Part shown: positions 2,488-29,389 of the stretch, piece after piece | Layout of the letters: each line of letters begins with the position of its first letter | How positions within the stretch are numbered: the first letter of the stretch is position 1 | Source: Obrimoposthia wandeli | Lineage: Eukaryota | Length of the DNA: 64,000 bases | Assembly (NCBI GenBank): GCA_977020255.1 | Contig: CDROCS010000228.1 | Location: 744,001-808,000, forward strand | Reading direction: 5' to 3' | Position numbers and translations under genes: made by a program | Notes under the pieces: generated by a model | What the model was told of the DNA's origin: nothing | Databases searched by the model: none | Seen by the model: only the letters and a program-made list of their open reading frames with translations

Positions 2488-2515
2488 ACAATTATTTCTA
2501 AAATCAGCTAAAGAT

Positions 2516-2743: not shown

Positions 2744-3610
2744 AGCTTACAAAACCAGCGGTCCTAATAATTTATGGCAAATGGATTTGATGGAGATGAT
2801 CCCATATTCTTCCATTAATAAGGGATATCGATATATTTTAACATGTATTGATGTATTTAGCAGGTTTGCTCGTGCAATTCCAGTTAAAGCAAAGTCTTCA
2901 ATAGCTATGCTTGAAGCCATTAAAGAAATATTAAAAGAGGACATTCCACAAAATGTGCAAACTGATTTAGGAAAAGAATTTTATAATAAGCAAGTTCAAT
3001 CATTATTTAAACAAAATAATATAAATCATTACTATGTGTTTTCACAATACAAAGCAGCAGTAGTAGAAAGATTTAATCGTACTCTAAGAGATCGAATAAA
3101 AAAGTATTTCACAAAAGAAGGAAATAAAAATGGATCCAAGTTTTACCTAAAATAATACATGCATATAATCACTCTGAACATAGAGGTCTCAAGGGAATGA
3201 GACCTGTTGATGTTACTAATAAAAACTCTATGGACATTTGGATGAACAGAAATAAAAAAGATAAAATTAAAAAAGCTAAATATAAGAAAAACGAATATGT
3301 TCGAATTTCGAAAATTAGCTCTACTCCATTTATTAAAAACTTTGATCAGAATTGGAGCGATGAAATATTTTGTATAAGTAAAATTGATCAAAAGAGTAAT
3401 CCAATAATGTATACTATTAAAGATGCTGACAATAATATCGTTCACGGTAAATTTTACGAGCAAGAACTACAAGTAATATCAAATAAACCTAGCGTTTTCC
3501 GTATTCAAAAAATATTAAAATCTAAGGGTACAGGTAAACATAAACAATACTTTGTTAAATGGCATGGTTATGCAGACCCAACTTGGATATCAGCATCTAA
3601 TATAATATGA
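2574..3610 (+). pseudogene. Retroviral-type (rve) DDE integrase with C-terminal chromodomain; one frameshift
   Basis: WQMDL, VQTDLGKEF and VVERFNRTL form the DDE triad; QYFVKWHGY...TWI is a chromodomain. The A5 run at 3126-3130 needs A6 to read GNKKWIQVLPKIIHAYNHSEH. Confidence 0.92.
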
Positions 3611-4665: not shown

Positions 4666-5020
4666 AGCTTATAGTCAAAGCCAACAAGGTGGAGAATTAC
4701 CATATTTTGTTGGTAAACAATACGGATCTGGCTGGCTTAGAACATTAGGTAGATTTGCCTTTCCTCTTTTAAAGAGACTCGGACGATTTATATCAAAATT
4801 AGGAAAGGATTACCTTTCATCTAATGACAATAAACTAATACCAACTTTTAAGAAGCATGCGCTTGATGAACTTGATAATGTTTTACCTGAAGTTGCTAAT
4901 TTGATTAGAAAACGTAAATAAAATAAAAGCCAAGGAGGTAGTGGATTTAAAAGTAAAAAGAAGCTAAAAAGTAATATAAACAAACGTAAGAATGTTGAAG
5001 GAACAATATTTGCAAAATGA
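4643..5020 (+). pseudogene. Adenovirus pVI-like maturation/membrane-lytic protein, one premature stop
   Basis: SQQGG|E is followed by amphipathic GSGWLRTLGRFAFPLLKRLG. The frame continues past TAA 4919-4921 as NKSQGGSGFKSKKKLKSNINKRKNVEGTIFAK*, with the TGA overlapping the MCP ATG (ATGA 5017-5020). Confidence 0.65.
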
Positions 5021-6244
5021 GTTGCGCCAAAACTGAATTATGTATTTTTGATAAACCGCTTCCACAAGTAGTTGTAGATAATGCTTCCTTTGAAGAAATA
5101 TTCCTAGTTAACTCAGTTTCAGGAACCACTTTAACCGATTTAGAATTTAATATTAATGGTTCCAATAGCGAGTATTTAGATTTGAATGATACTTTGCTTT
5201 ATGTTCAAATAAAAGTATTAAATCGGGATGGTACTAATTTAGATGAAAATGCCGATGTAACACCTATAAATTATCTATTTAATTCTTTATTTAATGATGC
5301 CATTGTTACTCTTAATAATGTCAAAATTGAAGGTGGAAATTCTTCCTATGCTCATAAAGCTTTGATTGAAAGTCTTTTGAATTATAGTACTGATACTCAA
5401 AATACTAATTTGGCAACCATTGGTTATGATAAAACTGATGCAACTCGCAAAGAATGGATTGCAGGTTCTAAAGCTTACGAAATGTGTGGGTCTTTGAGAT
5501 TGAATTTCTTTGAACAACCGAAATATTTAATTCCCGGTATTAATGTACATCTTCGTTTGAAACGTAATAAATGGAATTTTTCTTTGATAAGCACGGACAT
5601 TCTAAAACCTAGACTTGATATTTTGGATGCAAAATTGTATGTTCGAAGAGTTAAAACCGAGCAATCAGTTTTAATGGCACATAATATAGGAATGGAAAAA
5701 ACAATGCTTGTTATCCTATTAGAGAAACTAAACTTATATCTTATTCTTTAGGTACGGGTACACAAGCTTTTAATAAGGATCAAATTTTTGGTGATGTAAG
5801 ATTACCGAAATTCATTTTAATTTCTTTTCAAAAACTGCAAAGTTTCTAGGAAATTATACGACAGATGCAACTCAATTTGACAATCTTAATGTTGGTTCAG
5901 TAACACTTTCAAGAAATACTGATTATCGTGAAACATATAAAACAGATTTCGAAGGTAACGCTTATGCTTTGGCTTATACCCAATCTATTATTCGGAATTT
6001 GGGTCAACTAGATAAAAATATAAACAATGGTATTTCTTTCACTGACTTTAAAAAAAGCTGCCCGTTCTTCACATTTGTTTTGGCACCAGACTTTGATATA
6101 AACCAATGCCAACTACCAAAGGATGGAAATTTACGACTAGAAATTAAGTTCAATGCAGCTTCAACAAATCCTACTACGGTGCTTATTTACGGAGTATTTG
6201 ATTCGGAAATACAAATCAATAAAAACAGAACTGTCATATTATAG
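5017..6244 (+). pseudogene. Double jelly-roll major capsid protein (Polinton PY/hexon-like), two frameshifts
   Basis: CAKTELCIF...LEFNINGSNSEYLDLNDTLLYV at the start and GNLRLEIKF...VLIYGVFDSEIQINKNR at the end. One-base-short A runs at 5696-5701 and 5830-5834 explain the three reading-frame pieces. Confidence 0.9.
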
Positions 6245-6245
6245 A

Positions 6246-6644
6246 ATGGAGTAAGACATATTTTAAATTTTTATTTATTAATTTTTATTTAGTTCAAAAC
6301 AAGTAAAAGAATCAGCAGAGAAGGTCCTGGGTGATAAATTCAATGGAGTTTATCCTATTGATATGATTCCATTTTTTCAATCTGGAGGTTACATTATCAA
6401 TACTCATACTTCGAATTTACCAGGAGAACATTGGATAGCTATTTATGTTAGAGAGTGGACAATACATGTATTTGATCCACTTGCAATGTATTATCCACAC
6501 AAACTTGTTTCAACTATTCAAAAAGGACGAAGAAGAGTATTTTACAACAAGATACAATATCAGGATCCTGCGACGAGAAACTGTGGACATTTATGTATTT
6601 TATGGTTATCGTTGCAAAAACGATTAGTGTGTTATAAAAAATAA
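6246..6644 (+). CDS. Adenain-like (Ulp1 family) cysteine protease; 5-nt first exon (6246-6250), 42-nt intron, exon 6293-6644; 118 aa
   Basis: ATGGA|GTAAGA...TTTAG|T gives MDSKQVKE...FNGVYPID. Catalytic motifs GEHWIAI, FDPL and QYQ...NCGHLC are present. Confidence 0.85.
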
Positions 6645-6745
6645 AAATTTTAAATGTTTTATTTTGAATTATTTTTTAAATCTCTAAAAATTTAAGGGTA
6701 AAATAATAAAAGACATAAGACAAATTTTTTTAATACATTTATTAA
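6640..6745. terminator. Convergent polyadenylation region between the + structural cluster and the - polymerase gene
   Basis: AATAAA at 6640-6645 on + overlaps the protease stop; TTTATT (AATAAA on -) occurs near 6659 and 6738. Confidence 0.4.
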
Positions 6746-6892
6746 TCACAACATCACAATGAGATATGTCAGCAAAGATAAGGTCCATCCTAAAAATGTA
6801 TTGAAATAACAAATAAGTTAGAGTCTAGGTGCCATAGGGATCTAAAATTAAAAAAAAACTAAACTAAAAAAATCAAATAAAATGAAAACCGT

Positions 6893-9800
6893 TTAAATTC
6901 TGAAGTGTCCATAAGCCAGGCTAGCGTTCTTTTCTACCCAAAAGCGCTTGTCGTCATTACTACTCAACGCGATTTTGGTTGATTTATGGGAATACAGTTG
7001 ATGGGCTCTTGAAATAAATCTAGTTTGCTCAACGCTTTCAATACACCCAGTATCATAAACTTTCCGGTAGGCCTCATGTGTAAGATTGTTTCTTCTCACA
7101 CCCTTTGCTCTCATTGAACATGTATTATTAGATGCATGTAAACTGTAGCATTTAGACAATCATCATACGAAACCTGTCCCTCGCTTTCATCCTTAAATTT
7201 CCCGATAATGTCCTTTAAACTCATAGAGTGTAGAGGATGGTTAGCGGGATATTTATGGGTATCTAGTAAGTTGTCCCTAAACATTGCTGGTAATAATTGA
7301 TTATTTAAACTAACATTCCTACATTCTAAAAAGAAAGACAGTGTCCCCAGCTGCGATTTTAATCTCACAATTAAATTCTTGTCGGTATTTCTCCAATTCT
7401 ATGTATTGAAGCTCATACATTCTGAGTTTAGAAATGTCTAAAACCGTTTGACCTATATAACTCGGTCGATCGAGACAAATACTCTGTTTTCCTAATAACA
7501 CTGCTACCAAGTCATCTGCAATTGTAAAACTACGCTTGAAGTTGTACTTGCTAGTATATGTTATTAGTTTACGCTCATCATTGCAAAACTGTAGACAAAT
7601 ACGTTTCCGCAAATCCTCTACAGTTTTTCCAAAGAGACTATTACTTTTTAACTTGTAAAAATCTCGATCGAATTTGCTAGTGGCCAAATTATGTTTTCTT
7701 GAATTCTTCTCAATATAGTCTTTAAACACAAAGTTTTGACTGAAGCTTATAGCACGATGAATTCGAGTAACTTTCGCTCCCAACTTTAAGTAGAATTGAA
7801 GAAGCCGCCAATGCACAACATAATTCAACTTGTCTTCATGGGTTAACAATAATTTCTTAACCTTTGAATTAGGTGGGCATTGATGAACAGGCGCTACTGG
7901 AAGATCATCTAATTTATCATGCACATTGGGAGGGATTTTTATGTCCACCTCAACCAAATAGCCGACGTCGGATGAAACTGTATCAACAGTAGCCAAATCT
8001 GTCATCAACTTATTCAACTGATCCACATCATAAACCCACTTAAAGTTGGCATGAGGTAGAGGTTGAGTAAGCGCCCACCCATACAAATTATTAATATCGA
8101 TGTAGGGGAATCTCCGTGGATTGATTTTTGACAACATGATGTTTGTTGACAAAAGTCATTCCACCGCGTATACCATAATCATACATTTGATACATCGCGA
8201 GATCTTGCAGTAACTCGATATTAATTTTAAGAGTTTTTATTGCTGTTGCCCATGAAAGACCAGGTAAACTAAAGAAATGCATGGGATCTAGCCCATCTTC
8301 TGCTAAAGACTTTACACGAAAGGACTCAAAACATCAGCTAAAAGATAAATGTCTAACTTCATATAATAAAGCATATATTCGAGAAGATTTTGACAATTAT
8401 TCACCCAAAATGTACGGGCCTCATTATAGTCTTGAAGACTTACACCCTCAAATTCAGTTATGGGTGGGATTTCAGTTGTATTTTCTAAATCTGCGAAAGT
8501 TTTCGCAAATTTATACGGAAAAAATCCCCTTATCGTTAACCGAAGCTGGGAACACTGACTGTGTAATTGGCCATGCATTTAAAGATGCCGTTAAATTTTT
8601 TAAAGACCCGCTCAAAAACTGCAGAGAATCTATGAATCTTAAACTGCAGAATTCAGTATATGCAGTTAAAGATAAATATTTCTCTGAAGTTTGAGGTATA
8701 CATGAAATTTCCCAAGAGCTTAATGTACCCAACGCGTATTTAAGTATATGATGCAAATCATATCCTTTGGGGTTATGAAACACGATGGGAATGCGTGGTT
8801 TTTTAGGGAGACGACGGCCAAGGTTACAAAGGTTGCACGCCGCTCCCAAGTATCGCCCCGTAACATGATCGTGATCTCTGACTAACTTAGACTAGGTTCC
8901 ACACAAATAACATAATCTACAAGAATTAAAATTAACCCAGTCTATGCCTGTCATGATCATTGCTTGATGAGCATTGAGATCATACCACGGTTTGACAATT
9001 GTTGTTCCTAATTCCTCTAATTTTAACATAAAATCTAAAATACAATTTGGACCGGAAAATTTATGATACTGGGTAATATTGGGGCCTAAGAATAGTAGTC
9101 CTGCCGAAGCCGGTAGGTGAATACCCTCATACTGGTCGTGCAATGCTAAAATTGACTCAAAATCTGCATACACCCTGAATTCCACGGATATGCATTTTGC
9201 CCAATCCCTGACTTTTAAATTCTTATCCTTAGGCATGCTATATAGCGTATTGTCATCAGGATTCAGTGAACATAATGTCAGATGTTTGCTGTAAGAGAGC
9301 TCGGATCGGAACCCATGCAAACATCTATGACACCACTTACACCTTATCCTAACCGGTAAGGCTCCATTATCTAAATTTACAAGACGATCTAAACTGGGAA
9401 TTGCAGCATAATGGAATTTTTTATTATGTTCGAGCAAAATTAAGTTGACCTGAGTCCCCTCTTTTTTGCTCCTATAAATTACATCTACAAAAGGATTTTT
9501 AAAAATTTCTTCATCTGTTACATTAACTGGGATATCAGTATTATATTTGAATACATTAATACTCAAGTTATTAAGATGTTCAAATCTTGATATCGCAGTT
9601 AATTTAACCGGAAAATCTATTCCATGATACTGCAATTCATTTAAAAAGGGGTATATTTACTGACACGCTCTCTATGCTCAGTAATTACATCCCTTTTGAG
9701 GATGGCCAACACGCTATACAGAAAGCAAAGGTTATCACTGTTTTGTACGTTAACAATGGAACGTGAAAGTTGAAGAGATCTAGGTGAAGGAATGTATGAA

Positions 9801-11428
9801 CTCCCCGAAAGATATATCATGTCAGTGAACTTTGTTAGAACAAAGCTAACATCGTGAATTCTAACTAGAGTCCATCCACTACTTAGCTCGCTATAATTAG
9901 CAATTTTTTCATCAAGGTTTCTTCCAATTTCAGTTACAAAATTATCATAAAAAACAGTTGCTTTATGTGAAATTACCCAAGTTTTAGTTTCCTCATTGAC
10001 ATTTTTAAACTGCACTGTTGCGCAAAATTGAACCTTAGCCTGTCCTAATTTAGTCACTTCTGATTTTAAAAGATTTTCAATATTTGAATCTACACCTACG
10101 TTTAATAAAATTTCATTTCCTAATGGCACCTTAACTATAACATATTTATTATTTAGGTGATACTCTATAGTAGCACCGTTTTCTCTACGTTTTTTGGGCG
10201 GGACCTTATTAAGAAATTGGCCTCGCCTCTTTCTTCCGTTTGTCGCTGACAAACCTCCCCCTAATTGAACGGGAAGACAACTATTTATATTAATAGTTGA
10301 AACAATCGCAGCTGAGGTTGAAGGTGCTGCTATTGGTGATGCTGCCGATGTTGAGGCAATTGCAGCTGATGTGGAAGCTGCTGATATTGTTGATGCTGCC
10401 GATGTTGAGGCAACTGTAGCTGATGTTGAAGGGGCTACTGTAGCAGGTGCTGCCGATGTTGATGAGACAGTGGCAGTTGTAGAGGCTGCAATTGAAGCTG
10501 ACCTTGCCGATGAAGAAGCGGCTGATGTAGAGGTAAGTGCTGCTGAAATAAATATATTAAAAAATAAATATATTTTTTAAAATTATTACCTCTAAGGCGT
10601 GCTAACATCGATGTAGGCACTCGCAATGGTGGAGGCATATCTGTTGTAGCAGATGACGATTGTAGAAAGGTATTTCCTGAATAAATAATATAAATAAAAA
10701 ATATATATTAAAAATAAAATATATAATTACAATTTACAAAATAAAAAAAATACCTAATGAAGGCAATCCAAGTTGAGCTGGAACGAAGTCCTCTTCATTG
10801 ATGGAATCTATCCAGCTGTCGTCCGTTGACTCGATGAAATCGGATTCCTCAATGGTCTCCAACCATGAGTTGTCGCTCCACTGAGGCTGCTCCATCTCGA
10901 AATCTGACTGGGTGATATTTCGCATCCAGTCATTGTTTGAGAATTGGGTTGCTGGTGCCAACTCCTCAAAATCTTCCTCGGAGATGTCGTTCATCCACTC
11001 ATTGTTAGACATTTGAGTGGATGGGGCAGCAGCAGAATCAGGAGCCGGGAGAGAAGGACCAATGGCAGGACCATAAACTGGTAGACTGACTGCCACTGTA
11101 AATGGAGGTGGAGCTCGAGCGGCCTGCGAATCGCGCACCAATTGGACGATATCCCTCTTCTTGTTGTTGGCCGTGAAACACGATAGGTGAGCTCGATGTT
11201 CACAGAAGAATTCTCGAAACTCCTTCTTCTCCATTGTTCTGCAGAAGGGGCAGACGAAGAACAGAACACCTTGAGACTTGGTCCGGTAGTATGCAGACAT
11301 TGTCTCCATGCAGGACTCTCCTCCATGCGGAGCCGAAGCACCGCAATACGCAGGGAATAGGTTACACGTAATCTGAAATAATAAATATTAATAAGGAAAT
11401 AATAAAACTAAATTCTTACCATAGGCAT
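6893..11428 (-). pseudogene. Protein-primed family B DNA polymerase with spliced N-terminal leader; exons 11428-11420, 11372-10754, 10676-10590, 10542-6893; several frameshifts and one stop
   Basis: ExoI VYADFES, ExoII FHNPKGYD, ExoIII YMKLD; motif A YIDINNLYG, motif B KLKSNSLFGKT, damaged motif C GDT(D)S; KGV and DDKR near the C-terminus. It also has an EndoVII-like insert (CYLC...DHDHVTG...CNLCN) and a vOTU-like segment (NLCFLYS...FHYAAI). The three GT-AG introns keep frame into the core. Confidence 0.9.
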
Positions 11429-11523
11429 TATTTCAAATTGTCGGGGATTTAAATGAAGAAAGTGTTTGCTTATATACTAAAATTTATGCACACATGCTCT
11501 TTTCCTATTGGATTAAAAAATTG

Positions 11524-11713
11524 AATTTATTCCTCCACTGAGAAGGATTGTTTATCTGTTATTGGATGAAAAAATAATTTTATTCCTCCAATTAAAGAGA
11601 AGGATTGTTAATCTATTATAGGTTGAAAAAAAATTTATTCCTCCAATCAAAAGGCTTATTTGTAAATAAATGTAAAATTTTAATAATGAATTCCTCCAAT
11701 TAGAAGAATTGTT
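11524..11713. promoter_or_regulatory. Four degenerate ~55-bp repeats (AATTTATTCCTCCAAT...GAAGGATTGTT) upstream of the PolB TATA box
   Basis: TTCCTCCA(A/C)T copies near 11530, 11583, 11638 and 11691; TATATAAG on - at 11476-11469; first ATG at 11428. Confidence 0.55.
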
Positions 11714-12202
11714 TATCTACATGTCAAGTAATAATAAGAAAGACTTAAACATTTTTTATATGCGCAATGGTCACCATGATTACGATAAGGACAGCAAATA
11801 TTTTGTGGAATATTTAATAGATGATCACGTGAAATATTTAAAGTATTCAACCTCAATTTAGGAAAATATTTTTTTAAAGTCTTATATTTTTTGCCATCCA
11901 TGTCATCTAAAACATAAAAAATTCCATTTTCAATTTCAAAATTAGATTTAATAGTATCGAAAATACATATTTCACAAAAAGCCTTATGTCCTTCTTTCCA
12001 TTTTAATAAATGGAAATATTTAGTTAGATATAAGTTAGTAAATTTTTTCTTATAATCTAAACTTTTAAATGGGATATCTATATGAAATATGAAATGCAAA
12101 GGATGAAAAACGTCGCATACATCCATAATACATAATTCTTTTATAATATAATCCCCAATTTTTGTTAATGAAAGCCTCAAAATCTATGATATATTCCTGC
12201 AT
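11713..12202 (-). pseudogene. DEDD/DnaQ-like (Maelstrom-like) nuclease of the type found in insect Polintons; one frameshift
   Basis: True start MQEYIIDFEAF at 12202 (DxE motif), frameshift near 12160, then IIKELCI, TNLYLTKYFHLLKWKEG and the Cys/His tail CCPYRNHGDHCA. Confidence 0.6.
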
Positions 12203-12342
12203 AATTACCCAAATTTGTAGCAAATCCCGTTGTTTATAACGAAAAACTATTAATCAAAAATTTATTAAAATGACGAGGTAGTATTTAGACAATTTAATAT
12301 TTAGACAATTTATAACATAATCAATAAAGACAAAATAATAAT

Positions 12343-12672
12343 CTATAAAATTATTTTTTTTGTGGAAGGACCCTCCTCCGGTTTAATCTGGAGGATTCGC
12401 TTTCTTGCTGCTTGCCGAACATCCTCCGTCTCTTCTCTTCTTTTTTCCTCCACCTTCCTTTTTTCCATTTCGATTTTCTTGTTCCACTCCACAACCCGAC
12501 GTCGTTCTGCTAGCCGCCTGTCCTGAATTTCCACCCGACGATTCCACTCGGTCGCGACAGCAGTATATAAATTCTGGTTGAGGATCCTCTTTCGTAAATC
12601 TCCTTTCTTCTCATTTATTCTTATATTTGCCTCGATCTTCGTCACCAAACTTTGCATTTTAATAAATTCCAT
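12343..12672 (-). CDS. 109-aa charged coiled-coil protein of unknown function
   Basis: Intact ATG ORF rich in E/K/R; TATATATA and CCAATC motifs lie upstream (about 12700-12840). Confidence 0.6.
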   Translation of the reverse strand: MEFIKMQSLVTKIEANIRINEKKGDLRKRILNQNLYTAVATEWNRRVEIQDRRLAERRRVVEWNKKIEMEKRKVEEKRREETEDVRQAARKRILQIKPEEGPSTKKIIL

Positions 12673-12854
12673 TTTTTAATTATGAAGATGTTTGAACCTA
12701 TATATATAAATTAAAGATATTTTTAATCCAATCACAAGCAATTAAAATATATTTATCAAATGGAAGTTTAATAAATATATAACTAATCATTGCATTTATA
12801 TTTAATCCTAAAAAAATTAATTATTCATTAACAATCCAATCACATTCGAATAAG

Positions 12855-13040
12855 TTAACTTTATTTTAATAAACTTACGGAGGATATTTTAATATTATTA
12901 AATTCTAAAATTTATTGTTAACCTTGTTATTTTAATAAACTTAAGGAGGATATTTTAATATTAAATTCTAAAATTTATTTTTAACCTTGTTATTTTAATA
13001 AACTTAAGTAGTATATTTTAATATTACTAAATTCTAAAAT
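12855..13040. repeat. Three tandem ~63-bp AT-rich repeats
   Basis: TTATTTTAATAAACTTA...ATATTTTAATATT...AAATTCTAAAAT recurs near 12861, 12927 and 12990. Confidence 0.75.
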
Positions 13041-13069
13041 AAATAATAATAAAAAGACAACACAAGAAA

Positions 13070-15159
13070 CTAATGTTTATAAATTATATTTTTGAAAATC
13101 CTTACGAAGTCTTCATTGGTATCATCGGGGTCGTATTCCCTCCGACTTATTTTGATAGGAGAAAGCGGTACTGGTTCCTTCTTCTTTGGCCGGCCCGGTT
13201 TCTTTTTCGGCTTCACCGGTTGCTGTACAGCAATTGTCCTTCCCTCAGGTTTTGGCAATAGTTGCCGCAACTTTTTGGGAGGAGGTGCAGCCGATATTGA
13301 TGGCCCGGACATAGCAGCAGTAGCCTTCCTCTTCCGCGGAGCTTTCTTCTGTTTCTCCTCCTTCTCACGCTGAAGCTGGCGTGAGACGGCATCCTGTTGA
13401 TCACGCGAATCTGGAAGCATTGCGGGTGTATCCAGTTCCGCCAGGAATTCGTCCAAACCAGCGTCATCCCAGGCCCTCTTCAAGTTTTGGCTGGTTGTTG
13501 GACGAGGAGAAGCAGTATCCTGCAGGCGTTGTTGACTCGAGTGCGGACTTATCTCGATCGGCGAGACTGGGATCCTCTCATATAAGATAGGCCCGTCGTC
13601 CATTGGAGGAGGGAGAATCTCCTGCTGGCCAATCACCGCCTCAGAATAATGGCCAATTGAGGTTCAAATTTTTCTCGCGCGCCTCGTCTTCTTCACCTCT
13701 GCCCGCTTTGTCCTTTTCTTAGGGAAAGGAGTAACTTCTCCCCAAGTCTCCTCAATTATCCGGACAGGTTCCTGCAAATGAAAACAAAAATAAAATTTTA
13801 TTTTAATAAAAAAATATTTAAAATAACAAAAAATTACCTCAATAATCTTAGACGGAAGGTTTTCCTGCCGCTCAATCGTTACTTCACTCGAATTGAGCAG
13901 ACAGGATTTCGCCTTTCTAAGACGCCGTGTCTTCCGTACAGTAAGCTGCCTCGTTCGCTTATGCGGGAAAGGAGAACTTTTGGCCCACGTCTCCTCAGTT
14001 AATATTATTGGTTCCTGCAACAACAAAAACATTAATAAAATTTAAACATATAAATAATTTACCTCGATGACTGGCAGATTAGCCTTCTTCTTGGCCTTCT
14101 TCCGATGGACCGTATTGGTTTTGATTCGATGACGTCGAGCTTTCTTAACTGCCGCTTGCTTCCTATCGACAGGTAGTCTCCGAGATGCCTCCTCCCGAAT
14201 TTCCTCCACCAATTCAGCTTCCTAAGTGAATAATTAAATAAATTTACTAATTTTAATAATATACCTCAATTTTAGCCGGAGTCGGTAGGTATCTCTGATC
14301 ACTCCTGGGATCATCCTGGCTACATTGACTTGACAAGTATTGCGGTTCAATTAGCCTCTCAATCGTGGTCACTGACGGTGCCATATCCAATTGCAGTTTC
14401 TGAAAATAAAATTAAAAACATTTTAAATAAATGATTTCTAACCTCATTCGTCGCCTTTATTCTCCTAACAGGACGTATCGGAGATTGTGGCCTTCTGAAT
14501 GGATCAGGCACTGTATTGTTGGGTATCGGAGTCGGAGTTGTAGAGGGAGTGAGACCATCCCATTCGTCAGTGAACAGATCCCACTCATCGTCATCCATTT
14601 CTGCAACCATGGACTCGTTGGCTCCCGGGGCTCCGATACTTGGCTGTATCCACTCCTCCTCCCCATCCGACGGAACGTCATCAGTAAACAGCTCCTCGTC
14701 TGAGTCTGGTGCCAGTATTATCTCCAGTTGAGACAGCGGGATCAATTTCCTGGGGCATTTGATTGCCGCCTCGAAATTGTCAAAGAGATTGGATCTCCTT
14801 GCTGCTACTGCTGAAGTTGCCGGACGATTGGCTTCTGTGTTCAGCCTGGGAGTACAGTCTTCCCAATTCTCTATCGAATCCTGACTAGTCAGATCGATAT
14901 ATTGGGATCTCTGTACCCCACCTCGCACGCTCATTGGTTCTTCTCTTGGAGTTGAGCTGGCCAATGGCGGTTCTTCTAGCAACAGTTGGGCTCTTGCTGC
15001 TGCTTCTCCTTCGTCTCCTTCACTCACCACCGACGAGTCTTGACTAAGTAAGTCAATGTACTACGCCGGTGGTGGCGTTCGCTGCTGTACTGGAGAGAGA
15101 TCTCCATACAGCTGAACCTCCGTCTCTTCATCCAAATCGACGTTATTGAAATTTGACAT
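13070..15159 (-). pseudogene. Multi-exon acidic/basic disordered protein with SUMO-interaction-like motifs; exons 15159-14443, 14399-14265, 14221-14063, 14014-13838, 13771-13070; two in-frame stops
   Basis: Four phase-0 GT-AG introns (43, 43, 48 and 66 nt) join open frames. Stops are TAG near 15062 and TGA 13666-13664. Motifs include YIDLL, YIDLT, KPGRPKK and basic NLS-like clusters. Confidence 0.7.
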
Positions 15160-15242
15160 TCTTGCTTCTTGATTAATGATATTTGATTTATGAAAAAATA
15201 ATGAAAAGAGGTTTCCTTATATACAAAAATAATAGACTAATC

Positions 15243-15513
15243 CTCTTTTGTCGTCCAATGAGAGTGGGTTAATCAAATAATTTATTTGAAAATCAGTAGG
15301 CTTTTCTCAATTTTTTAACTATGTTTTAATGCTGGAATTTCATTGGATAAAACATATTTTATTCGAAAATATATCACTAAACTTTTGTCGTCCAATGAGG
15401 GCTGGGTATTCAAATAATTTATTTGAAAATCAGTAGGCTTTTCTCAATTTTTTAACTATGTTTGAATGCTGGAATGTCATTGGATAAAACATATTTTATT
15501 CGAAAATATATCT
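15243..15513. repeat. Direct duplication of a ~139-bp CCAAT-containing promoter module
   Basis: CTTTTGTCGTCCAATGAG...AAATAATTTATTTGAAAATCAGTAGGC...TTATTCGAAAATATATC occurs twice in tandem upstream of the 15159 ATG. Confidence 0.8.
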
Positions 15514-15689
15514 ATTTTCTTAAGATTTTCTTAAGATTTTCTTGTATAAGTTTAACGTCCAATGAAAACGTATTATTCAAAGAATTTATGTTATTTTCTT
15601 AAATTTTGTTAATATTTGGATTTAAAATAGTAATATTTTTTTTTGACTGTACATGTTTTGATGGTATAAAAAATTCATGAACTCATTTC

Positions 15690-16072
15690 AGGTCAAGTTA
15701 AGGTCATTACCTTATGAGGTCATCATCGTGAGGTCAAGGTCATTTAAGGTCATCATGAGGTCAAGGTTACAAAGTTGTCTAGGTCATCATGAGGTCAAGA
15801 TCACTTAAGGTCATGATGACTAATTTGATGACTCATCAAATAAAAATGCAAATTATTTCGAATTTATGTAGTTGATTATTTAAAAATTTTTTGTGACCCT
15901 ATATATGTATCTTTCTTATAAATTCTTGTAAAGAATTTTTTTTTTATGACCTTGTATATATGTATGGATATAAATTTTTATAAGGAAAATTTTTTCGCGC
16001 CCACCGGGCGCGAAAAAAAATTTCTCGCGTATAATTTTTCTGGTCTGCAGGGCGCGAAATGTTTTTTCGCGA
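15690..16072. promoter_or_regulatory. Subterminal cluster of AGGTCA half-sites, an AP-1 palindrome and E2F-type sites
   Basis: Ten exact AGGTCA at 15690-15813; TTTGATGACTCATCAAA at 15824-15840; TTTCGCGC/GCGCGAAA at 15993, 16008 and 16052, and TTTCGCGA at 16065. Confidence 0.55.
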
Positions 16073-16261
16073 GCCTGTATTTATTACTCGTTGATCCACC
16101 GCGGGCCTGTAGGGCACCCTTTGGCCAATTTTTTGGCCTCTCAGGACCTTAATCAAAATTTTGGGAGCATTATGAGATTTTTAAATTTACATGGTGTTAA
16201 ATGGAGTTAATTTTTTTTTCTTTTTTTGAGTGTTTTGGGATGGTTGGGGGTTAGAAAATTT

Positions 16262-16330
16262 TTCTACACACCTACACGAAATTTCACTCTACACACATGC
16301 ACGAAATTTCACTCCACACACCTACACGAT
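16262..16330. repeat. Three short subterminal repeats ACACACCTACACGAAATTTCACT
   Basis: Directly visible just inside the right terminus of element A. Confidence 0.65.
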
Positions 16331-16386
16331 TTTAAAGGACAAGGGGGGAGGAGGGGTGTGGATTAGAAAGGACACATCCACCTACT

Positions 16387-19300
16387 GGTCATGACCCTCT
16401 ATGGTCGGCCAACATAGCCAAGGGGTTGTGGCCGACCATAGATGAAAATATCGGATTCAGTTTTGACTTGAAGGTTTGAAGGTTTGAAGGTATGGTCATG
16501 ACCATATATGGTTGACCAACACACCTAAAGGGTTGTGGTCGTCCATATATGAAAGGGTCGGGGTCAGTTTTGACTTGAAGGTTTTAAGGTATAATTAAGG
16601 TCTATTATAGTTGATCAACACATCTAAAGGGTCATGGTCGGTCATAGTTGAAGGGGTCGGGCTAAAGACAAAATTAACTTTCAAATATCAAGGTTTTAGT
16701 ACATAGTTGGAATCATCTTTTGAAGACGAATTCATCCATAAAGGTATGGTCGTCCATAGATGAAGGGTTAAAAAAAGTTGTAAGTACATGGTTGTGTTTG
16801 TCAAAATATTGTGCGTTTAATCATGTAAAAACTTTATAGTCGTCCACAAGTTAAGGGTCAGATTTGGAACAAACTTGATAATTTTATTACATGGTTGTAT
16901 TTGTCTATTAAAATTGAGGTCAACCATATCCTTATGATCATGCATAAGTTGAGGGATCCTAGTGTAAATAAAAAAAATACTTGTAATTTAAAAAAATATA
17001 TTTATATATATATATTTTTTAATTAAAATTTTTGTAAAATAATTTTTTTTTACACTTTCAGTCATACTCTATAACTCTAATTCCTTTACACATTCGATAT
17101 TACTAACGTTTTTTTTACTTACTCTTGTTATCACTTAGTATCATTTTAAATCATACTATCTAACTCATTTATTTACATTGTGATTTACATTTACATTCAT
17201 TCATACCTTTCTAATGACTTACTTGTCTATAGTTTTACTTACATTTAGTATTATTTTAATTCATACCATCAAACATAGTGTTGTTTCCTATTAATCTTGC
17301 TGTCACTTAGTCATTCTAACTTTTAACATAACTCAGTATCATGCTTCTTACAGTTGTTTACTTGTTATTAATCTAACTGTAACTTAACATAACTTTTATG
17401 CATACGAAACCTCTATTTGAATTTACTTAGAGTCTAAATTACATTCACATTCAATCATACTCTCAACACTCTTTTTTTTAATTACTCACACTGTCACTGT
17501 TTCACACTTGCAGTTTTACATTCACTTGCTAAGACTCTTACTTGTATTTGCATTCACTTGTAATCATACATGCATTCATTTACATTCATTCTAACTCTCA
17601 TTTATTCAAACTATCATTAAAAATCATTAATATTGTATTAATTTCCATTCATACTTGTACTTGACATTCGTACTTGCAATCGTATTCTTTCTTACTTGTA
17701 CTTGTAGCTACATTCATTCATACTTGCATTCATTTACATTCATTCTTACTCTCATTTATTCAAACTATCATTCAAATTCATTAATGTTTTTACTAATTTT
17801 CATTCATACCGTCAAACTAAGTGTTGTTTTCTATTAATCTCGCTGTAACTTAGTCATTCTAACTTTTAACATAATTCAGTATCCCTGATTCTTATAGTTG
17901 TTTACTTGTTATTAATCAATCTGTCATTTAATATAACTTTTATTCATACGAAAACTCTATTTTAATAAACTTGTAGTCGTAATTATACTCGCATTCAATC
18001 ATACTCTCGACACTCTTTATTTTTAATTACATTCACTTGATAAGATTCTTACTTGTATTTGCATTCACTTGCATTCATACTTGCATTCATTTACATTCAT
18101 TCTAACTCTCATTTATTCAAACTATAACTCAAATTCATTGATATTTTTACTAATATTCATTCATTATTGTACTTGAATACATTGTTCTTGCATTCGTATT
18201 CATTCATAATTGTATTCGTAATCTTTCTTACTTGTACTTGCATTCATTCTTAATTGTAATTGCTTTTATTTAAATTTACACTTGTATTAATTCACAATCG
18301 ATTATTAATTTTATTTTTTTTCACAAGAGATTTTTAATATTTTAGAAAGTTGAATAATAAATGGAAATACTAAGTTTATAATCGAATATGTACATAATTT
18401 GATTTATTTACATATAAAACAATATAATTAAAGATTTGATATTCTAATTTATAGACGAAGCTTTCAGTAAGCTTTGAATAACATGTGTTTGCAAATTAAT
18501 TTTCGATATTCGATACAAATAAAAATAAAATAAATTTGAAGTTTTTTTTTAATGTGTTAAAGATATTTTCGACTATTTAAAGTGTAAATCGAATAATGTT
18601 AATACTCAAATTATATAAATAAACATTTCTTTAACCAAGTTTTTTAAAAATAAAGAATTCAAATTTATCAGTTTAAAAAAACTAATTAAGGAATGTTATT
18701 AAATGAGATAAAGAATTTTTAATTATTTATGTGTGTGAAGTGATCATTATAACATGTGAAAATTATGTTTGAGAATAAACACACACACGAAAATTGACAA
18801 TTATTAATATAATATAAACAGATTATTAATGTTATTCATTGGTTGCTAGTATTAATTTGATAATTACAAATTAATAATAGAAAATGATTTATCTTTATAT
18901 ATATACATATATTTTTTTTAATTTGCTTTATAATTATTATATTTTTAATATGTTTATCATTATTTTAAGGCATAAATTACAATCATAAAATAGTGCAATT
19001 TTAAAATTAATAAATATTTAAGATATTTAACTTAGAGTTATAATAAATAGGTTTGTGTTTGTATATACATTTGTTTAAATACATCAAAAGTGACAATATA
19101 AAAATCGCGGTAATTTAAAAATATGTTAGAATTAATCATTTTACAGACTTTTATCAAAATTTAAATTATTAAAATCTAAAGGGAGAGTACAAATTGTTTA
19201 AAGTACAAATTGTAAAAAAAGAATTACAAGTAAGTTAATATCTTGTATTATTCTATTATTTTTAAATAACATTTGTATTTAGTAGTTATTACTTGAACTT

Positions 19301-20600
19301 AAAGTTGTTTTTTTAATAAAAATTTTTATATATTAAAAAAAATCAAATATTACTAAAATGTATCAAAAAAAATTTAAAAAACCCGTTAAATTATAATTTG
19401 TTTAACTTTAACAAAAACTAAAAAAATAATTTGGCACAAATTTAAATTTAAATATATATATATATATTTTTTTGAAATTACAATTATTTTCATCAGAACT
19501 TTTTAATTTTATTAACCAAAATTTTTTCACATAGCATAGTGTGTATTAATACGTAATACATTCTTTAACTGATCAGAGTGAACTTTGACCTAAATGTTCA
19601 CATAGCGTAATTGATTGATTACTATAGATGTGTTTGGTACTTTAATATTTTATTTAAAAATCCTTTAAATTAAAATTTGTTTAACTTTAATAAAAACTAA
19701 AAAATTAATTTGGTAAAAATTTAAATTAAAAAAAAAATTATTTTTGAAATTACAGGTATTTTTAAATTTTTTATTTGAATATCTTTTCTTTTATTTTAAA
19801 CAAAATTGTTTAATTACATTACTAAAATTAATAAAAATTTGCGTAAATTGAAATATTTTAAAAAAATTGTTAGTAAAGTATTTTGAGTTTATTAAACATT
19901 TAATTTTGCTTAATATTGGTTTTAAATAATAGTACTTTAAAATTTTATTTAAAAAAAATCTTCAAATTAAAATTTGTTTAACTTTAACAAAAACTAAAAA
20001 ATTAATTTGACAAAAATTGAATTTTTTTTAATTTACCCCAGGATCCCTCCACTTATGCATGATCATAAGGGTATGGTTGAACTCAATTTTGCTAGACAAA
20101 TACAACCATGTAATAAAATTATCAAGTTTGTTCCAAATCTGACCCCTAACTTGTGGACGACCTTAAAATTTTTACATGATTAAACAAACAATATTTTGAC
20201 AAACACAACCATGTACTTACAACTTTTTTTAACCCTTCATCTATGGACGACCATACCTTTATAGATGAATTCGCCTTCTAAAGATGATTCCAACCATGTA
20301 CTAAAACCTTGATATTTTAAACTTGATTTTGTCTTTAACTAGACCCTTTGATTTATGGATGACCATACCTTTATGGATGAATTCGCCATCTAAAGATGAT
20401 TCAAACCATGTACTTTCATCTGTGGACGACCACAACCCCTTGGCTATGTTGGCCGACCATAGAGGGTCACGACCATACTGTGTGGCAAGACACCATATGA
20501 TGAGTCAACATATACCCTTATGGTATGACACCCTTTAACATTGTGTGTGCACACCGGGGGTACCCCCGTAAGTGGTCTAGACTCCATCAAAGTACCTACT
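16387..20600. mobile_element. Non-autonomous Polinton-family element B, interrupted in its left TIR by element A
   Basis: 16387-16960 is an inverted copy of about 20040-20474. The right end reads ...GACTCCATCAAAGTACCTACT(20600). The interior is non-coding and shares blocks with element C. Confidence 0.8.
17050..18280. repeat. Degenerate CATTCA/TACTTG-rich tandem repeat block inside element B
   Basis: Recurrent CATTCATACTTGCATTCATTTACATTCATTCTAACTCTC and TTAATCTTGCTGTAACTTAGTC units, homologous to those in the arms of element C. Confidence 0.75.
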
Positions 20601-21330
20601 TATCATAATCTACTGTTTACTTGTTGAAAACAATTTCAATTAATTTATTAACTTTGTAGTTCTGATAAAAGAGACAAGTCTGAACAGATGCTAATGAGTT
20701 TGTTGCATACAGATGCACTTTGATGTGCAAATTTAATATCAAAGGTTATTTCAATTTATTCTATGTCTTAGTTTAGAATTTCTCTTTTTCTATATTCAAA
20801 AACTGTCTATAGGACTTATTTAAATTTACATTTACAGTATTGTACAGTGCGTTTGCGATATTTCCATGAATGTTTAAAATATATTTCTGATATTTTTATT
20901 TTATAATTTCTTAGAAATTCTAAGCTTTAAAATTAAAAGCAAGTATGATAATGTTTAGAGTTTTACTGGTTAAATTCAACATTTATACAAAAAAATATGA
21001 ATCTAGGTAGTAATAAAATATTTTTTTAAAAATAACCATTTGATGAAAATTATGTAAAAAATAAAGAAATATTCATATATATTCAAAAAATTGTTTTATT
21101 TTATTTCTTGATTTATAAAAATATAACTACTTCAATGAAAAACGCGAAATTTAGTGGACATAGTTTTATTTTCACTTTTTAAGAAGAAAACGTTAAAAAT
21201 TAAGTTTAAAAATATTGTAAAATCTTCTAATTAATTATAATTAAAATTCACAATCATTAGTGAATATATTCATAAAGTATGTTTCTTTCAAAAAATGTAT
21301 AATATATTTTTTAAAATCAATTAAACTTAC

Positions 21331-21897: not shown

Positions 21898-23519
21898 CTG
21901 TTCACACTGCTTAATTCTTACACGTAATGCACAAATATTTCGGCACAATTCTTAATCGAATTTGGGAAATTCTCAATGATCAGAATTTTTATGTGGTCTT
22001 TGTTTTAAATTATGTATATAGACTAGCTCCTTACAATTTCCAACACTTAAACGTTCAATTGTAACAAATCTGGGTTACATTTGTGTTGAGAATTTCTAAA
22101 TAACTCTCACAGTAGGTAGAAGGATGGAGTCTAAGCCACTTGACCCCCCCCTTGTGCGCACACAATGTTAAAGGATTTTTCAACATAAGGGTGTCACACC
22201 ATAACGGTGTCTTGCCACACCATAAGGGTATATGTTGCCTCACCATATAAATGTCACACCATAAGGGTATATGTTGACTCACCATAAGGGTGTCTTGCCA
22301 CACCATAAGGGTCTGGCTCAGAAAGTTTATGATAGGGGGAGGGGGGAAGGGTCAAGTGGCTTAGTCTCCACCCTTCTTTGGTATACCACTAAAGGGTTGT
22401 GGTCGTCCATAATTCAAAGGGTCAAGGTCAGTTTTGACTTGAAGGTTTGAAAGTATGGTCATGACCGTCTATGGTCGTTCAAAAATCAAAGGGTCAGACT
22501 CAGTTTTGACTTGAAACTTTGAAGGTATAATTAAGGTCAACTATGGTTGGCCGTCACATCTAAAGGGTTGTGGTCGTCCATAAATCAAAGGGTCAGACTC
22601 AGTTTTGACTTGAAACTTTGAAGGTATTATTAAGGTCAACTATGGTTGGCCATCACATCTAAAGGGTTGTGGTCGTCCATAGGTCAAAGGGTTGGGCTAA
22701 AAAAAAAAAAATTAAAATATCAAGGTTTTAGTACATGGTTGTAATCATCTTTAGAAGGTGAATTCAGTCATAAAGTATGACTGTCCATAAATCAAAGGGT
22801 CGAGCTATAGACCAAATCAAGTTTTAAATGTCAAGGTTTGAATACATGGTTGTAATCATCTTTAGAAGACGAATTCATCCATATATGTATGGTCGTCTAT
22901 AGATGAAGGGTTAAAGAAAAGTTGGAATTTCATAGTTTCAAGTACATGGTTGTATTCTTCAACATATTACGAGTTTATTCATGTACAAATTTTATGGTCG
23001 TTCACAAGTTAAGAGTCAGATTTGGCATAAATTAAGAAATTATATAGTATTCAATCAATTATTCTATGTGAAAGTTCACTCTTATCAGTTAAGGAATGTA
23101 TTACGTAATCATACACACACTATTCTATGTGAAAATTTAGTCTAAAGTTCACTCTTATCAGTTAAGGAATGTGGTTTTTAACACACACACTATTCTATGT
23201 GAAAGTTTAGATCAAAATTTTTTCCTAGGCTTATACATCTATAGAATTATGATAAAATTTCTTTAAATAACTTAAATTACATATTAAAATAAAAAATAAA
23301 ATAAGAAAGAAGTCAGAGAATAATACAAAATTAAACACATTTATTATGCAATTTCATAATATCATCTTCAAACTTAAGTGAATAACATTTACAAAGTAAG
23401 AAAGTCCATTCTTTATACATTCTTTTCGTTTCAACGACTAAGTTACAGAGGGGAAAAAAAACAACAACACTAAGTTTAACGCTATGAATGAAAATTAGTA
23501 AAATATTAATTTATTTGAA

Positions 23520-24660
23520 TATTTGAATGATAGTTTGAATAAATGAGAGTTAGATTAAATGTAAATGAATGCAAGTATGAAAAAAAAACACTAAGTTTAA
23601 CGCTATGAATGAAAATTAGTAAAATATTAATTTATTTGAATATTTGAATGAGAGTTAGATTGAATGTAAATGAATACAAGTATGAATGCAAGTATGATGT
23701 AATTTACAAGTAAGAGTCTTAGCAAGTGAATGTAATTTAAAAAATAAGAGTGTCGATCGTTTGATTGAATACAAGTGTAATTTAGACTATATGTAAATTA
23801 AAATAGAGTTTTCGTTGAATAAATTATAGTTAGATTGAATGTAAATGAATGCAAGTATGAATGCAAGTGAATGCTAGTATGAATGTCAATACAAGTAAGA
23901 GTCTTAGCAAGTGAATGTAATTTAAAAATAAGAGTGTCGATAGTTTGATTGAATACAAGTGTAATTTAGACTATAAGTAAATTAAAATAGAGTTTTCGTT
24001 GAATAAATTATAGTTAGATTGAATGTAAATGAATGCAAGTATGAATGCAAGTGAATGCTAGTATGAATGTCAATACAAGTAAGAGTCTTAGCAAGTGAAT
24101 GTAATTTAAAAATAAGAGTGTCGATAGTTTGATTGAATACAAGTGTAATTTAGACTATAAGTAAATTAAAATAGAGTTTTCGTATGAATAAAGTTATGTT
24201 AAGTTACAGTTAGATTAATAACAAGTAATCAACTATAAGAAGCAGTGATATTGAAGTATGTTAAAAGTTAGAACGACTAAGTTACAGCAAGATTAATAGA
24301 AAACAACACTAAGTTTGAAGGTATGAATGAAAATTAGTAAAATATTAATGTATTTGAATGTAATTGAATGATAGTTTGAATAAATTACAGTTAGATTGAA
24401 TGTAAATGAATGCAAGTATGATTGAATGCATCTACAAGTACAAGTAAGAAAGAATACGACTGCAAGTACGAATGTCAATTATGAATGAAAATTAGTAAAT
24501 ATATTAATGAATTTGAATGGTAGTTTAAATATACGAGAGTTAGAATGAATGTAAGTGAATGCAAGTATGAATGTAAGTGAATGCAAGTATGAATGTAAGT
24601 GAATGCAAGTATGAATGCAAATACAAGTAAGAATCTTTGCAAGTGAATCTAAAAATGCAA
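23520..24660. repeat. ~185-bp tandem units plus GAATG/CAAGT short repeats, left arm of C
   Basis: GAGTCTTAGCAAG at 23714, 23899 and 24083. Confidence 0.8.
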
Positions 24661-25519
24661 GTGAGTACTAGCTAATTATTAAATTAATACTATCAATCAA
24701 TGAAGATGATGTAACAACCTGATGAAGTTAAAATAATTAGATGTGAACTTTCATATTTTCACATAGTTTACCCCATGTTAAAGTTAACCTTTCATACACA
24801 CTCATGCAATTAAATAATTAAAATGTCTTATCTCGTTTAATAACATTCCTTAATTGAAATATTTTAAAATAATTAGATAAATTTAAATTCTTTATTTTTA
24901 AATAACTTGATTATAAAATTATATTCGTAAATATAATTGAAATTATCATTATTCGTTTCTCTTTTTAACTATTCGAAAATATATTTATATACAAATTTAG
25001 TAAATTAACTCAACAAAGAATTTTTTTTTAATTACTTGATATTTTTGCCATTCTCTTATCAATATAATATGAATATTCAATTATTTCTTAAAAAATTCTT
25101 TTTATATGTTATATAATATTTCTTTACCACATTATTGTGGTATTTTATCAAGTGATTTTAACTTTAAACTATTAAAAAATATTTTAATTATAAAGTTACT
25201 AGCTGTACCCCACCGACTGCCTATAATATAAATTTCAAATATAAAGTACTATTAAATGTATTCTTTCAAATAGTAAATGTTCTTTAAAGAATTTAAATTT
25301 ATCTAATTATTTTAAAATATTTCAATTAAGGAATGTTATTAAACGAGATAAGACATTTTAATTATTTAATTGCATGAGTGTGTATGAAAGGTTAACTTTA
25401 ACATGGGGTAAACTATGTGAAATATGAAAGTTCACATCTTAATTATTATAACTTCATCAGGTTGTTACATCATCTTCATTGATTGATAGTATTAATTTAA
25501 TAATTAGCTAGTACTCACT

Positions 25520-26900
25520 TGCATTTTTAGATTCACTTGCAAAGATTCTTACTTGTATTTGCATTCATACTTGCATTCACTTACATTCATACTTGCATTC
25601 ACTTACATTCATACTTGCATTCACTTACATTCATTCTAACTCTCGTATATTTAAACTAGCATTCAAATTCATTAATATATTTACTAATTTTCATTCATAA
25701 TTGACATTCGTACTTGCAGTCGTATTCTTTCTTACTTGTACTTGTAGATACATTCAATCATACTTGTATTCATTTACATTCAATCTAACTGTAATTTATT
25801 CAAACTATCATTCAATTACATTCAAATACATTAATATTTTACTAATTTTCATTCATACCTTCAAACTTAGTGTTGTTTTCGATTAATCTTGCTGTAACTT
25901 AGTCGTTCTAACTTTTAACATACTTCAATATCACTGCTTCTTATAGTTGATTACTTGTTATTAATCTAACTGTAACTTAACATAACTTTATTCATACGAA
26001 AACTCTATTTTAATTTACTTATAGTCTAAATTACACTTGTATTCAATCAAACTATCGACACTCTTATTTTTAAATTACATTCACTTGCTAAGACTCTTAC
26101 TTGTATTGACATTCATACTAGCATTCACTTGCATTCATACTTGCATTCATTTACATTCAATCTAACTATAATTTATTCAACGAAAACTCTATTTTAATTT
26201 ACTTATAGTCTAATTACACTCGTATTCAATCAAAATATCGACCCTCTTATTTTTTCCCAAATTACATTCACTTGCTAAGACTCTTACTTGTATTGACATT
26301 CATACTAGCATTCACTTGCATTCATACTTGCATTCATTTGCATTCAATCTAACTATAATTTATTCAATGAAAACTCTATTTTAATTTACTTATAGTCTAA
26401 ATTACACTTGTATTCAATCAAACTATCGACACTCTTATTTTTAAATTACATTCACTTGCTAAGACTCTTACTTGTATTGAAATTCATACTAGCATTCACT
26501 TGCATTCATACTTGCATTCATTTGCATTCAATCTAACTATAATTTATTCAACGAAAACTCTATTTTAATTTACTTATAGTCTAAATTACACTTGTATTCA
26601 ATCAAACTATCGACACTCTTATTTTTTAAATTACATTCACTTGCTAAGACTCTTACTTGTAAATTACATCATACTTGCATTCATACTTGTATTCATTTAC
26701 ATTCAATCTAACTCTCATTTATTAAAACTATCATTCAAATATTCAAATAAATTAATATTTTACTAATTTTCATTCATAGCGTTAAACTTAGTGTTTTTTT
26801 TCATACTTGCATTCATTTACATTTAATCTAACTCTCATTTATTCAAACTATCATTCAAATATTCAAATAAATTAATATTTTACTAATTTTCATTCATAGC
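25520..26900. repeat. Inverted counterpart of the ~185-bp array, right arm of C (one extra unit)
   Basis: GCTAAGACTC near 26087, 26274, 26458 and 26643. Confidence 0.8.
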
Positions 26901-29389
26901 GTTAAACTTAGTGTTGTTGTTTTTTTCCCCTCTGTAACTTAGTTGTTGAAACGAAAAGAATGTATAAAGAATGGACTTTCTTACTTTGTAAATGTTATTC
27001 ACTTAAGTTTGAAGATGATATTATGAAATTACATAATAAATGTGTTTAATTTTGTATTATTCTCTGACTTCTTTCTTATTTTATTTTTTATTTTAATATG
27101 TAATTTAAGTTATTTAAAGAAATTTTATCATAATTCTATAGATGTATAAGCCTAGGAAAAAATTTTGATCTAAACTTTCACATAGAATAGTGTGTGTGTT
27201 AAAAACCACATTCCTTAACTGATAAGAGTGAACTTTAGACTAAATTTTCACATAGAATAGTGTGTGTATGATTACGTAATACATTCCTTAACTGATAAGA
27301 GTGAACTTTCACATAGAATAATTGATTGAATACTATATAATTTCTTAATTTATGCCAAATCTGACTCTTAACTTGTGAACGACCATAAAATTTGTACATG
27401 AATAAACTCGTAATATGTTGAAGAATACAACCATGTACTTGAAACTATGAAATTCCAACTTTTCTTTAACCCTTCATCTATGGTCGACCATACATATATG
27501 GATGAATTCGTCTTCTAAAGATGATTACAACCATGTATTCAAACCTTGACATTTAAAACTTGATTTGGTCTATAGCTCGACCCTTTGATTTATGGACAGT
27601 CATACTTTATGACTGAATTCACCTTCTAAAGATGATTACAACCATGTACTAAAACCTTGACATTTAAAACTTGATTTGGTCTATAGCTCGACCCTTTGAT
27701 TTATGGACAGTCATACTTTATGACTGAATTCACCTTCTAAAGATGATTACAACCATGTACTAAAACCTTGATATTTTAATTTTTTTTTTTTAGCCCAACC
27801 CTTTGACCTATGGACGACCACAACCCTTTAGATGTGATGGCCAACCATAGTTGACCTTAATAATACTTTCAAAGTTTCAAGTCAAAACTGAGTCTGACCC
27901 TTTGATTTATGGACGACCACAACCCTTTAGATGTGACGGCCAACCATAGTTGACCTTAATTATACCTTCAAAGTTTCAAGTCAAAACTGAGTCTGACCCT
28001 TTGATTTTTGGACGACCATGACCCTTTAGATATGTTGGTTGACCATAGACGGTCATGACCATACCTTCAAACCTTCAAGTCAAAACTGACCTTGACCCTT
28101 TGAATTATGGACGACCACAACCCTTTAGTGGTATACCAAAGAAGGGTGGAGACTAAGCCACTTGACCCTTCCCCCCTCACCCTATCATAAACTTTCTGAG
28201 CCAGACCCTTATGGTGTGGCAAGACACCCTTATGGTGAGTCAACATATACCCTTATGGTGTGACATTTCTATGGTGAGGCAACATATACCCTTATGGTGT
28301 GGCAAGACACCGTTATGGTGTGACACCCTTATGTTGAAAAATCCTTTAACATTGTGTGCGCACAAGGGGGGGGTCAAGTGGCTTAGACTCCATCATTCTA
28401 CCTACTTCTCACCAGTTACAGTAACTGGGAAAAATATCCAATTATGAGGATGGGACAAATGCCAACCCAAACAATAATTCCGGGACTGTTCACAGACTTA
28501 TCGAAACTTTATGACGGTTTTCTTCACAACAAAACACACAATTGTGGCGATTGACTTTTAAAAACATCCTCAAACAATTCATGAAACTGTTCACGGAATT
28601 CTAAAATGCAGTAAAAATCATCTTCATTCAGGTATTGAACCAATCTAGGTCACCAAACTTTTAAGTCTTATTTATTTAAGATCGTTGAACAGTATTTCGA
28701 GTTCTGCAGAAAGACAACGTAAAGAATATTGTTTGCTGTGTCAGCACTTCTTTAGCAATCTGCCGATTTTCCTATGTGTTCACTACTGAACGAGAGAACT
28801 TAGGGAGCAGTTATTTATACCATTTGTTGTTAAAATATTTACACGAATATTAATTCTAAATGTTATGGAATGGAAACAAAAAGAAAACATGGAGATTATA
28901 TTGATATTTTGCTGAAAAAGTCACAGCAATGTACAGAAGACTTAAGAGACGCATATTAAATATTACAAAGGAAAGATTCACCAATCAAGGATTATATTAA
29001 TTTAAGCCAAGTCAATATGGTTAACTAAAAGGAAGTTGATATAAGTGAAAGTAAATTTCATTTCGGAAGAAACCATTATCAAATTTGTACATGAGAACAT
29101 TCCACCAAAAAATGCATTGCGTTTAGGAAATTGTCCGGCACGACCGAAGGAAAATGGTAAAAAACAAAAGGTTGTGTAATAAATGCTTATAGAAAGGATA
29201 TTGGACAAAAAATATTAAGTGCAGACAATTATGTCATATAGATGGATGTAGTCAAAGCATCATTGGATTTAACACATTAGAATGCAAACAAAAGATCATT
29301 GAAGTATAAGGAAACAAACTAATCCGTAAAACCAGATGCATTTGCAGGTTCAACAGAAAATAATGGTGACTTTTCGAACAATTCCAGTG

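Follow-up and report, generated by a model that had tools for sequence, protein, structure and literature searches.

Does a Polinton that lies inside the terminal inverted repeat (TIR) of a related element mean that Polintons choose the ends of their relatives as integration sites? The question is raised by a stretch of 64,000 nucleotides of Obrimoposthia wandeli DNA (G000:C228:744001-808000, within a 1.35-Gb assembly; here called the window), in which one element, A, interrupts another, B. A first-pass annotation had made an exact prediction for the junctions of this nesting, and it had taken the nesting to suggest that Polintons target their relatives' TIRs. If such targeting were true, it would add a new layer to the parasitism that goes on among endogenous DNA viruses. 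The counts speak against it, and as a general rule TIR targeting is not supported. The locus is very probably explained by chance nesting together with a retrovirus-like local target preference, the site not having been chosen as a terminal repeat.

The layout of the junction is as the annotation had described it. CACCTACT terminates at 16386 and GGTCATGACCCTCTATGG follows directly, positions 16387-16450 and 20474-20411 are inverted counterparts (92% identity), and TATCAT comes directly after the end of element B at 20600. The two strings predicted upstream of the window are present, TATCAT|AGTAGGTACTTTGATGG at G000:C228:742607 (1,394 bp upstream) and GGTCAT|AGTAGGTGGATGTGTCC at C228:742802; the left end of A is thus flanked by GGTCAT and B-type TIR sequence, and not by anything else. 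The junction prediction is a good one, with both ends borne out, and the nesting itself is ordinary. Insertion of A in the left TIR of B, with GGTCAT duplicated within the palindrome GGTCATGACC, holds, whereas the depth of 126 bp has to be corrected to 189 bp, or 195 with the 6-bp duplication included, because the arms of B are unequal. The left arm repeats a short unit of about 22 nt in tandem once more than the right. The block AAGGGTCTGGCTCAGAAAGG... is found in this arm and in uninterrupted copies (L070, L091, L072) and is absent from the right arm, which at the matching site reads GGTCGTGACC. The string expected between the two duplications, ending ...CCACACAGTAT-GGTCAT, was wrong as well; the outer piece of B reads ...GTTTGAGGGTAT-GGTCAT. 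In separate alignments, the outer piece reaches position 172 of L091 and the inner piece starts at 167, and on L072 the corresponding positions are 239 and 234. This exact overlap of 6 nt is what a target duplication requires, and it is far beyond chance. The features are collected in Table 1.

Table 1. Features of the nested elements and of the relative used for comparison. Positions are those of the window unless a contig is named.
Feature	Position	Strand	Remarks
Element A, whole	G000:C228:742802-760386		17,585 bp; left end and GGTCAT about 1.2 kb before the window
Element A, part inside the window	1..16386	.	
Right TIR of A	16266..16386	-	121 bp; 94% identity with the left TIR; begins AGTAGGTGGATGTGTCC
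TBP-like domain ORF of A	672-1028		PF00352, E 2.5e-11
A32-like packaging ATPase of A	1331..1978	+	PF04665, E 4e-5
Integrase of A, two frames	2574..3610	+	rve core 2574-3155, chromodomain piece 3197-3610
Positional candidate for minor capsid protein of A	3886-4665		no Pfam match
Piece of A's major capsid protein (look-alike of the double jelly roll type)	5017..5751	+	Atlas score 0.98
Adenain-like cysteine protease of A (look-alike)	6282..6644	+	Atlas score 0.97, PF00770 clusters
Protein-primed family B polymerase pieces of A	7319..8891	-	PF03175, E 3e-12 and 5e-6, above cut-off
Element B, whole	C228:742607-764600		4,403 bp once A and one GGTCAT are subtracted
Inner part of B	16387..20600	.	B's outermost 189 bp precede A
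Outer part of B's right arm	20475..20600	-	terminus AGTAGGTACTTTGATGG; its counterpart in the left arm is longer
Element C, B-family relative	22111..28406	.	duplication TCTCAC; independent insertion, used for comparison
A's target duplication GGTCAT, left copy	C228:742796-742801		
A's target duplication GGTCAT, right copy	16387..16392	+	
B's target duplication TATCAT, left copy	C228:742601-742606		
B's target duplication TATCAT, right copy	20601..20606	+	

Element A is a Polinton/Maverick in which several genes are broken. A profile search of 17 ORFs in Pfam gave matches for 7, one of these being low-complexity and below the cut-off; the integrase matched PF00665 (E 6e-14) and the chromodomain PF00385 (E 1e-5). 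Integrase and polymerase are spread over several frames, and the capsid gene is apparently split, 5795-6244 being likely the continuation of the capsid piece. Capsid and protease are look-alikes in the Atlas only: PF21738 is found on 11% of the members of the capsid piece's Atlas cluster, Pfam and PDB sequence searches with this piece gave no significant match, and the protease ORF had no Pfam match and a best E of 0.67 in the PDB sequence search. Like animal Polintons/Mavericks, A combines integrase, polymerase, ATPase, protease and capsid with AGT-type termini and a 6-bp duplication. Its 17.6 kb, its 121-bp TIRs and its duplication match the Mavericks described in the available parts of PMC8097293, intact vertebrate elements being 12.7-24.6 kb long with TIRs of 46-1,447 (PMC8097293; 10.1101/2023.08.22.554363, in part). 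The termini are of the AG type (AGTAGG...CCTACT), whereas the same sources, as far as available, give (AGT)2 or (AG)3 for known Polintons; the TBP-like ORF and the broken integrase, capsid and polymerase genes also set A apart from the elements compared. The closest relatives of A are 98-99% identical over 601 bp and a full-length relative on C1277 is 96% identical, and the A family is therefore young.

Element B is AT-rich and its arms are 85-92% alike. Neither B nor C contains an ATG-initiated ORF of at least 120 aa, and 8.8 kb of one 11.4-kb B-type copy have no open frame of 90 aa. C is an almost complete palindrome of 6.3 kb with a spacer of 390 nt. B, C and a third element upstream, D, have in common AGTAGGT termini (as in A), long TIRs, internal repeats and 6-bp duplications (TATCAT, TCTCAC and ACGGTC, respectively). 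They may be non-autonomous Polintons, to judge in the case of B from the termini and the 6-bp duplication; no coding partner was found for this family. In C/D-type ends (L069-L098) the internal tandem units resemble degenerate copies of the element's own terminus. Elsewhere in the window, the minus strand of 60915-61856 holds an ORF of 313 aa in a GC-rich patch, without a Pfam match.

Both families are abundant, and this sets the baseline for any nesting. Exact termini number 19,760 for the A type and 13,047 for the B family (reversed controls, 0), which corresponds to about 10,000 elements of the A type and no fewer than 6,500 of the B family. The load of AGTAGG-ended elements in this genome is very high. 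Chance alone predicts 57-103 A insertions within the outer 600 bp of B-family ends, and one A-in-B nesting is therefore expected. The copy number of A seems to be far above that of vertebrate Polintons, for which the available parts of PMC8097293 and 10.1101/2023.08.22.554363 give a mean of 22 and examples near 290; an internal segment of A gave 1,582 candidates, a first-look figure and not a copy number.

A preference for B-family ends should be visible in the flanks of other A copies. Adjoining B-family DNA was found at none of 89 A termini taken in contig order, at none of 23 close left-end relatives, and at 2 of the 28 termini at loci of close right-end relatives, where the adjoining DNA is in each case internal to a D-type element. 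Among the 30 loci in one set of relatives, 6 had no terminus at the expected place, and the window's own was excluded. Altogether 2/140 sampled termini, some of which are the two ends of one element, adjoin B-family DNA, against 4-7 expected with the window's own locus left aside. As background, B-family DNA covers 3-6% of the sequence 1-4 kb away from the termini taken in contig order, and 2.8% of a cleaned background set. The flanks of A are thus at background level and, if anything, poor in B-family DNA, although older A copies predating the B-family burst would dilute any real preference.

The survey for enrichment inside TIR repeats that the annotation had proposed also found none. It relied on marker motifs in place of directly counted A termini up to 500 bp inside B-family termini. 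The outer-TIR marker CCATAAGGG has 38,969 sites in the genome (control, 1,945) and lies within 14 nt of an A terminus 4 and 9 times in the two orientations, six of the nine being one duplicated block. The raw count is 13 against 8.55 expected (p 0.09); with duplicates collapsed it is 8 (ratio 0.94, 95% interval 0.40-1.84). GGTCAT junctions of A number 3 genome-wide against 3.5 expected, B-family DNA holding about 6% of GGTCAT sites. One is the window's, one belongs to a mini element in non-B DNA, and the last to a full-length relative of 17,063 bp on C1053, where GGTCAT is duplicated, on the opposite strand, in a GGTCATGACC palindrome belonging to a B-family end. The C1053 copy is a point in favour of the targeting claim, but it is a single case. 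GGTCAT within GGTCATGACC was rejected as a hot spot, since the exact TATGGTCATGACC sites number 4,598 and a single one of them (the window's) has a junction on this register. A set of six identical junctions within a C-type end was likewise rejected as a hot spot: the interior is common to all of them over kilobases, and 5 of the 6 readable have a common flank beyond the end of the host element. They represent one miniature A in a C-type end, present as six copies within a larger duplicated block (L166, L169, L171-L174), and a (GGTGT)n tract is of very different lengths in 5/6 of these copies.

True targeting of a virus-like element has a model in the type 1 Ngaro retrotransposons, 91% of which lie in endogenous virophages (EMALEs); for the EMALEs themselves the same paper found no sequence-specific integration (PMC8547959). 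Ngaro resembles A in B in that a mobile element is nested in a virus-like one, but the 91% found in the target contrasts with about 1-2% of sampled A termini in B-family DNA, which is at or below the genome share of that DNA.

What the A family does have is a local preference. The central step of the duplication is YR in 76 of 141 unselected A flanks, against 34 in control positions, and RY in 18 of the 141. The half-site TG|GWC is matched 134 times where 16-17 are expected (about 8-fold); among the first 100 matches, 82 are outside B-family context and 18 within it, as classed by eye. The full palindrome TG|GTCGTC|CA occurs in the subterminal units of the B family and is used about 30-fold above average. 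The motif TGGTCGTCCA in these units is a real hot register, and the half-site is favoured outside B as well. TATGGTC gave 47 matches within 16 nt of an A terminus, all classed by reading their context, and 19 of them share one spacing of 17 (12 B-family, 10 independent; 7 non-B, 6 independent). At other spacings there are 11 in the B family (8 without the window's and duplicates) and 17 in non-B DNA (15); off this register, B-family DNA stands at 8 against 4.9 (p 0.12) and non-B DNA is similarly high, 15 against 10.3.

At GTCGTC junctions the B-family share, read by eye from 17 nt, is 13/22 against 17% of sites (p 1e-5), and this excess needs the flanking TG/CA preference as its explanation. 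TG|GWCGWC is used about 34-fold in B (12 matches, of which two are the ends of one element and some are likely duplicates) and 17-fold outside (2 matches only, an estimate from 8 sites), and for the remaining TG|GWC sites the values are 11-fold and 7.5-fold, with significance reached in neither comparison. Among sites matched for the half-site or for the full hexamer, B-family DNA is not hit above its share of sites (12/14, p 0.54, and 6/86, p 0.32). All these folds are rough, since the site numbers are extrapolations, based on 405 kb for the background and on 30 ends for the B family (scale factor 1.8). The 12-nt terminus in these patterns is matched by a sister family as well. AT|GGTCAT|GA, the window's own junction, misses the favoured register, seen at L250 as TG|GTCATG, by one base.

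This preference mirrors that of retroviral integrases with a 6-bp duplication, for which the available part of PMC4422553 reports YR enriched and RY depleted at the duplication centre. Like ASLV, HERV-K, HTLV-1 and MMTV (same source), the A family shows a weak palindromic preference with YR up and RY down, and its best sites have T two bases outside the duplication, as in those integrases. However, the register TG|GWCGWC|CA is peculiar to the A family, and its preference is read from fixed genomic copies, whereas the retroviral one comes from fresh integrations. The preference is modest and apparently undescribed: searches of open-access and bioRxiv full text yielded no local target preference for Polintons, which is weak evidence of absence, and neither Polinton-in-Polinton targeting nor a target motif appears in the accessible portions of PMC12220804, PMC8097293, PMC8547959, 10.1101/2024.01.15.575659, 10.1101/2025.02.07.637071, PMC6431247 and 10.1101/2023.08.22.554363, a set that covers neither subscription papers nor Repbase reports. 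A measured target preference of a Polinton integrase is a useful by-product, and the roughly 10,000 A-type insertions are an unusually good dataset for the full target motif.

The junctions give the order of insertion, B and then A. The non-coding B, with its long inverted ends, inserted first, duplicating TATCAT, and a young A-family Polinton then integrated inside B's left end. A retrovirus-like integrase, presumably A's own, would have made the 6-bp staggered cut that led to the duplication of GGTCAT. Its preference would be weak and symmetric, with a central YR step, A or T in the second and fifth positions, and optimal sites resembling TG|GWCGWC|CA, as might be expected from a symmetric integrase-DNA complex favouring bendable DNA. 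The subterminal units of the B family happen to carry a palindrome of this kind and would so form small hot registers.

The main alternative is that integration of A is steered to B-family subterminal units beyond the local sequence, for instance by a palindrome-bound protein, the ends serving as landing pads. It would account for the stronger use of TG|GWCGWC in B-family units (about 30-fold, against about 17-fold outside) and for the B-family majority at GTCGTC junctions, and it fits the two full-length A copies in GGTCATGACC and the length of several nested A copies (C1277, C1053, C2505, C1719). Nevertheless, steering is unlikely, given that the residual 2-fold difference is not significant (p 0.54), that CCATAAGGG, itself part of B-family ends, shows no excess, and that B-family DNA adjoins none of the closest left-end relatives and so few termini overall. 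Tethering of the A integrase to the subterminal palindromes, with the roughly 30-fold use of TG|GTCGTC|CA and the residual 2-fold left over after sequence effects as its signal, is improbable to the same degree; if true, it would be Polinton-on-Polinton targeting, with non-coding B-family elements as landing pads for coding Polintons.

Over-retention of insertions in non-coding repeats, which escape purifying selection, is an established expectation for TE-rich genomes. Nested copies could in this way be kept rather than targeted, and some have indeed spread further inside larger duplicated blocks, but this is very unlikely to be what matters here, as the termini show no overall excess to account for. 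That the junction is an assembly chimera, or that A and B moved as one composite, is hardly credible: both families are very repetitive and duplicated nested blocks are known elsewhere in the genome, yet two independent exact duplications stand in the right order, and the window's junction is single copy among the three GGTCAT junctions. Amplification of A and B as a composite was rejected for the same single-copy junction. Chance nesting with a local preference therefore remains the favoured reading.

Nesting also occurs the other way round and in other combinations. At G000:C11:616987-629289 (L156, L163) a 12-kb D-type element lies 128 bp inside an A-type end, with the duplication GTCACA. 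Two copies of a sister family (L104, L170, L222, L241; terminus AGTAGGTGGATGTGTGTCTTTCGG, repeats ATGAGTCATCG), each about 15.5 kb long, lie inside B-family ends (C2062, C735). At L214 a left terminus of A stands beside A-internal sequence (like window positions 91-130, by eye), probably A in A. Miniature A-type elements of 161-297 bp consist of the two ends only (L039, L050, L059, L064, L107, L133, L149), most of them with exact 6-bp duplications. Finally, at G000:C1225:228610-246683 GACAAC stands at one of two facing junctions and GATGAC at the other; a single GACGAC duplication whose CpG has decayed on either strand could account for both.
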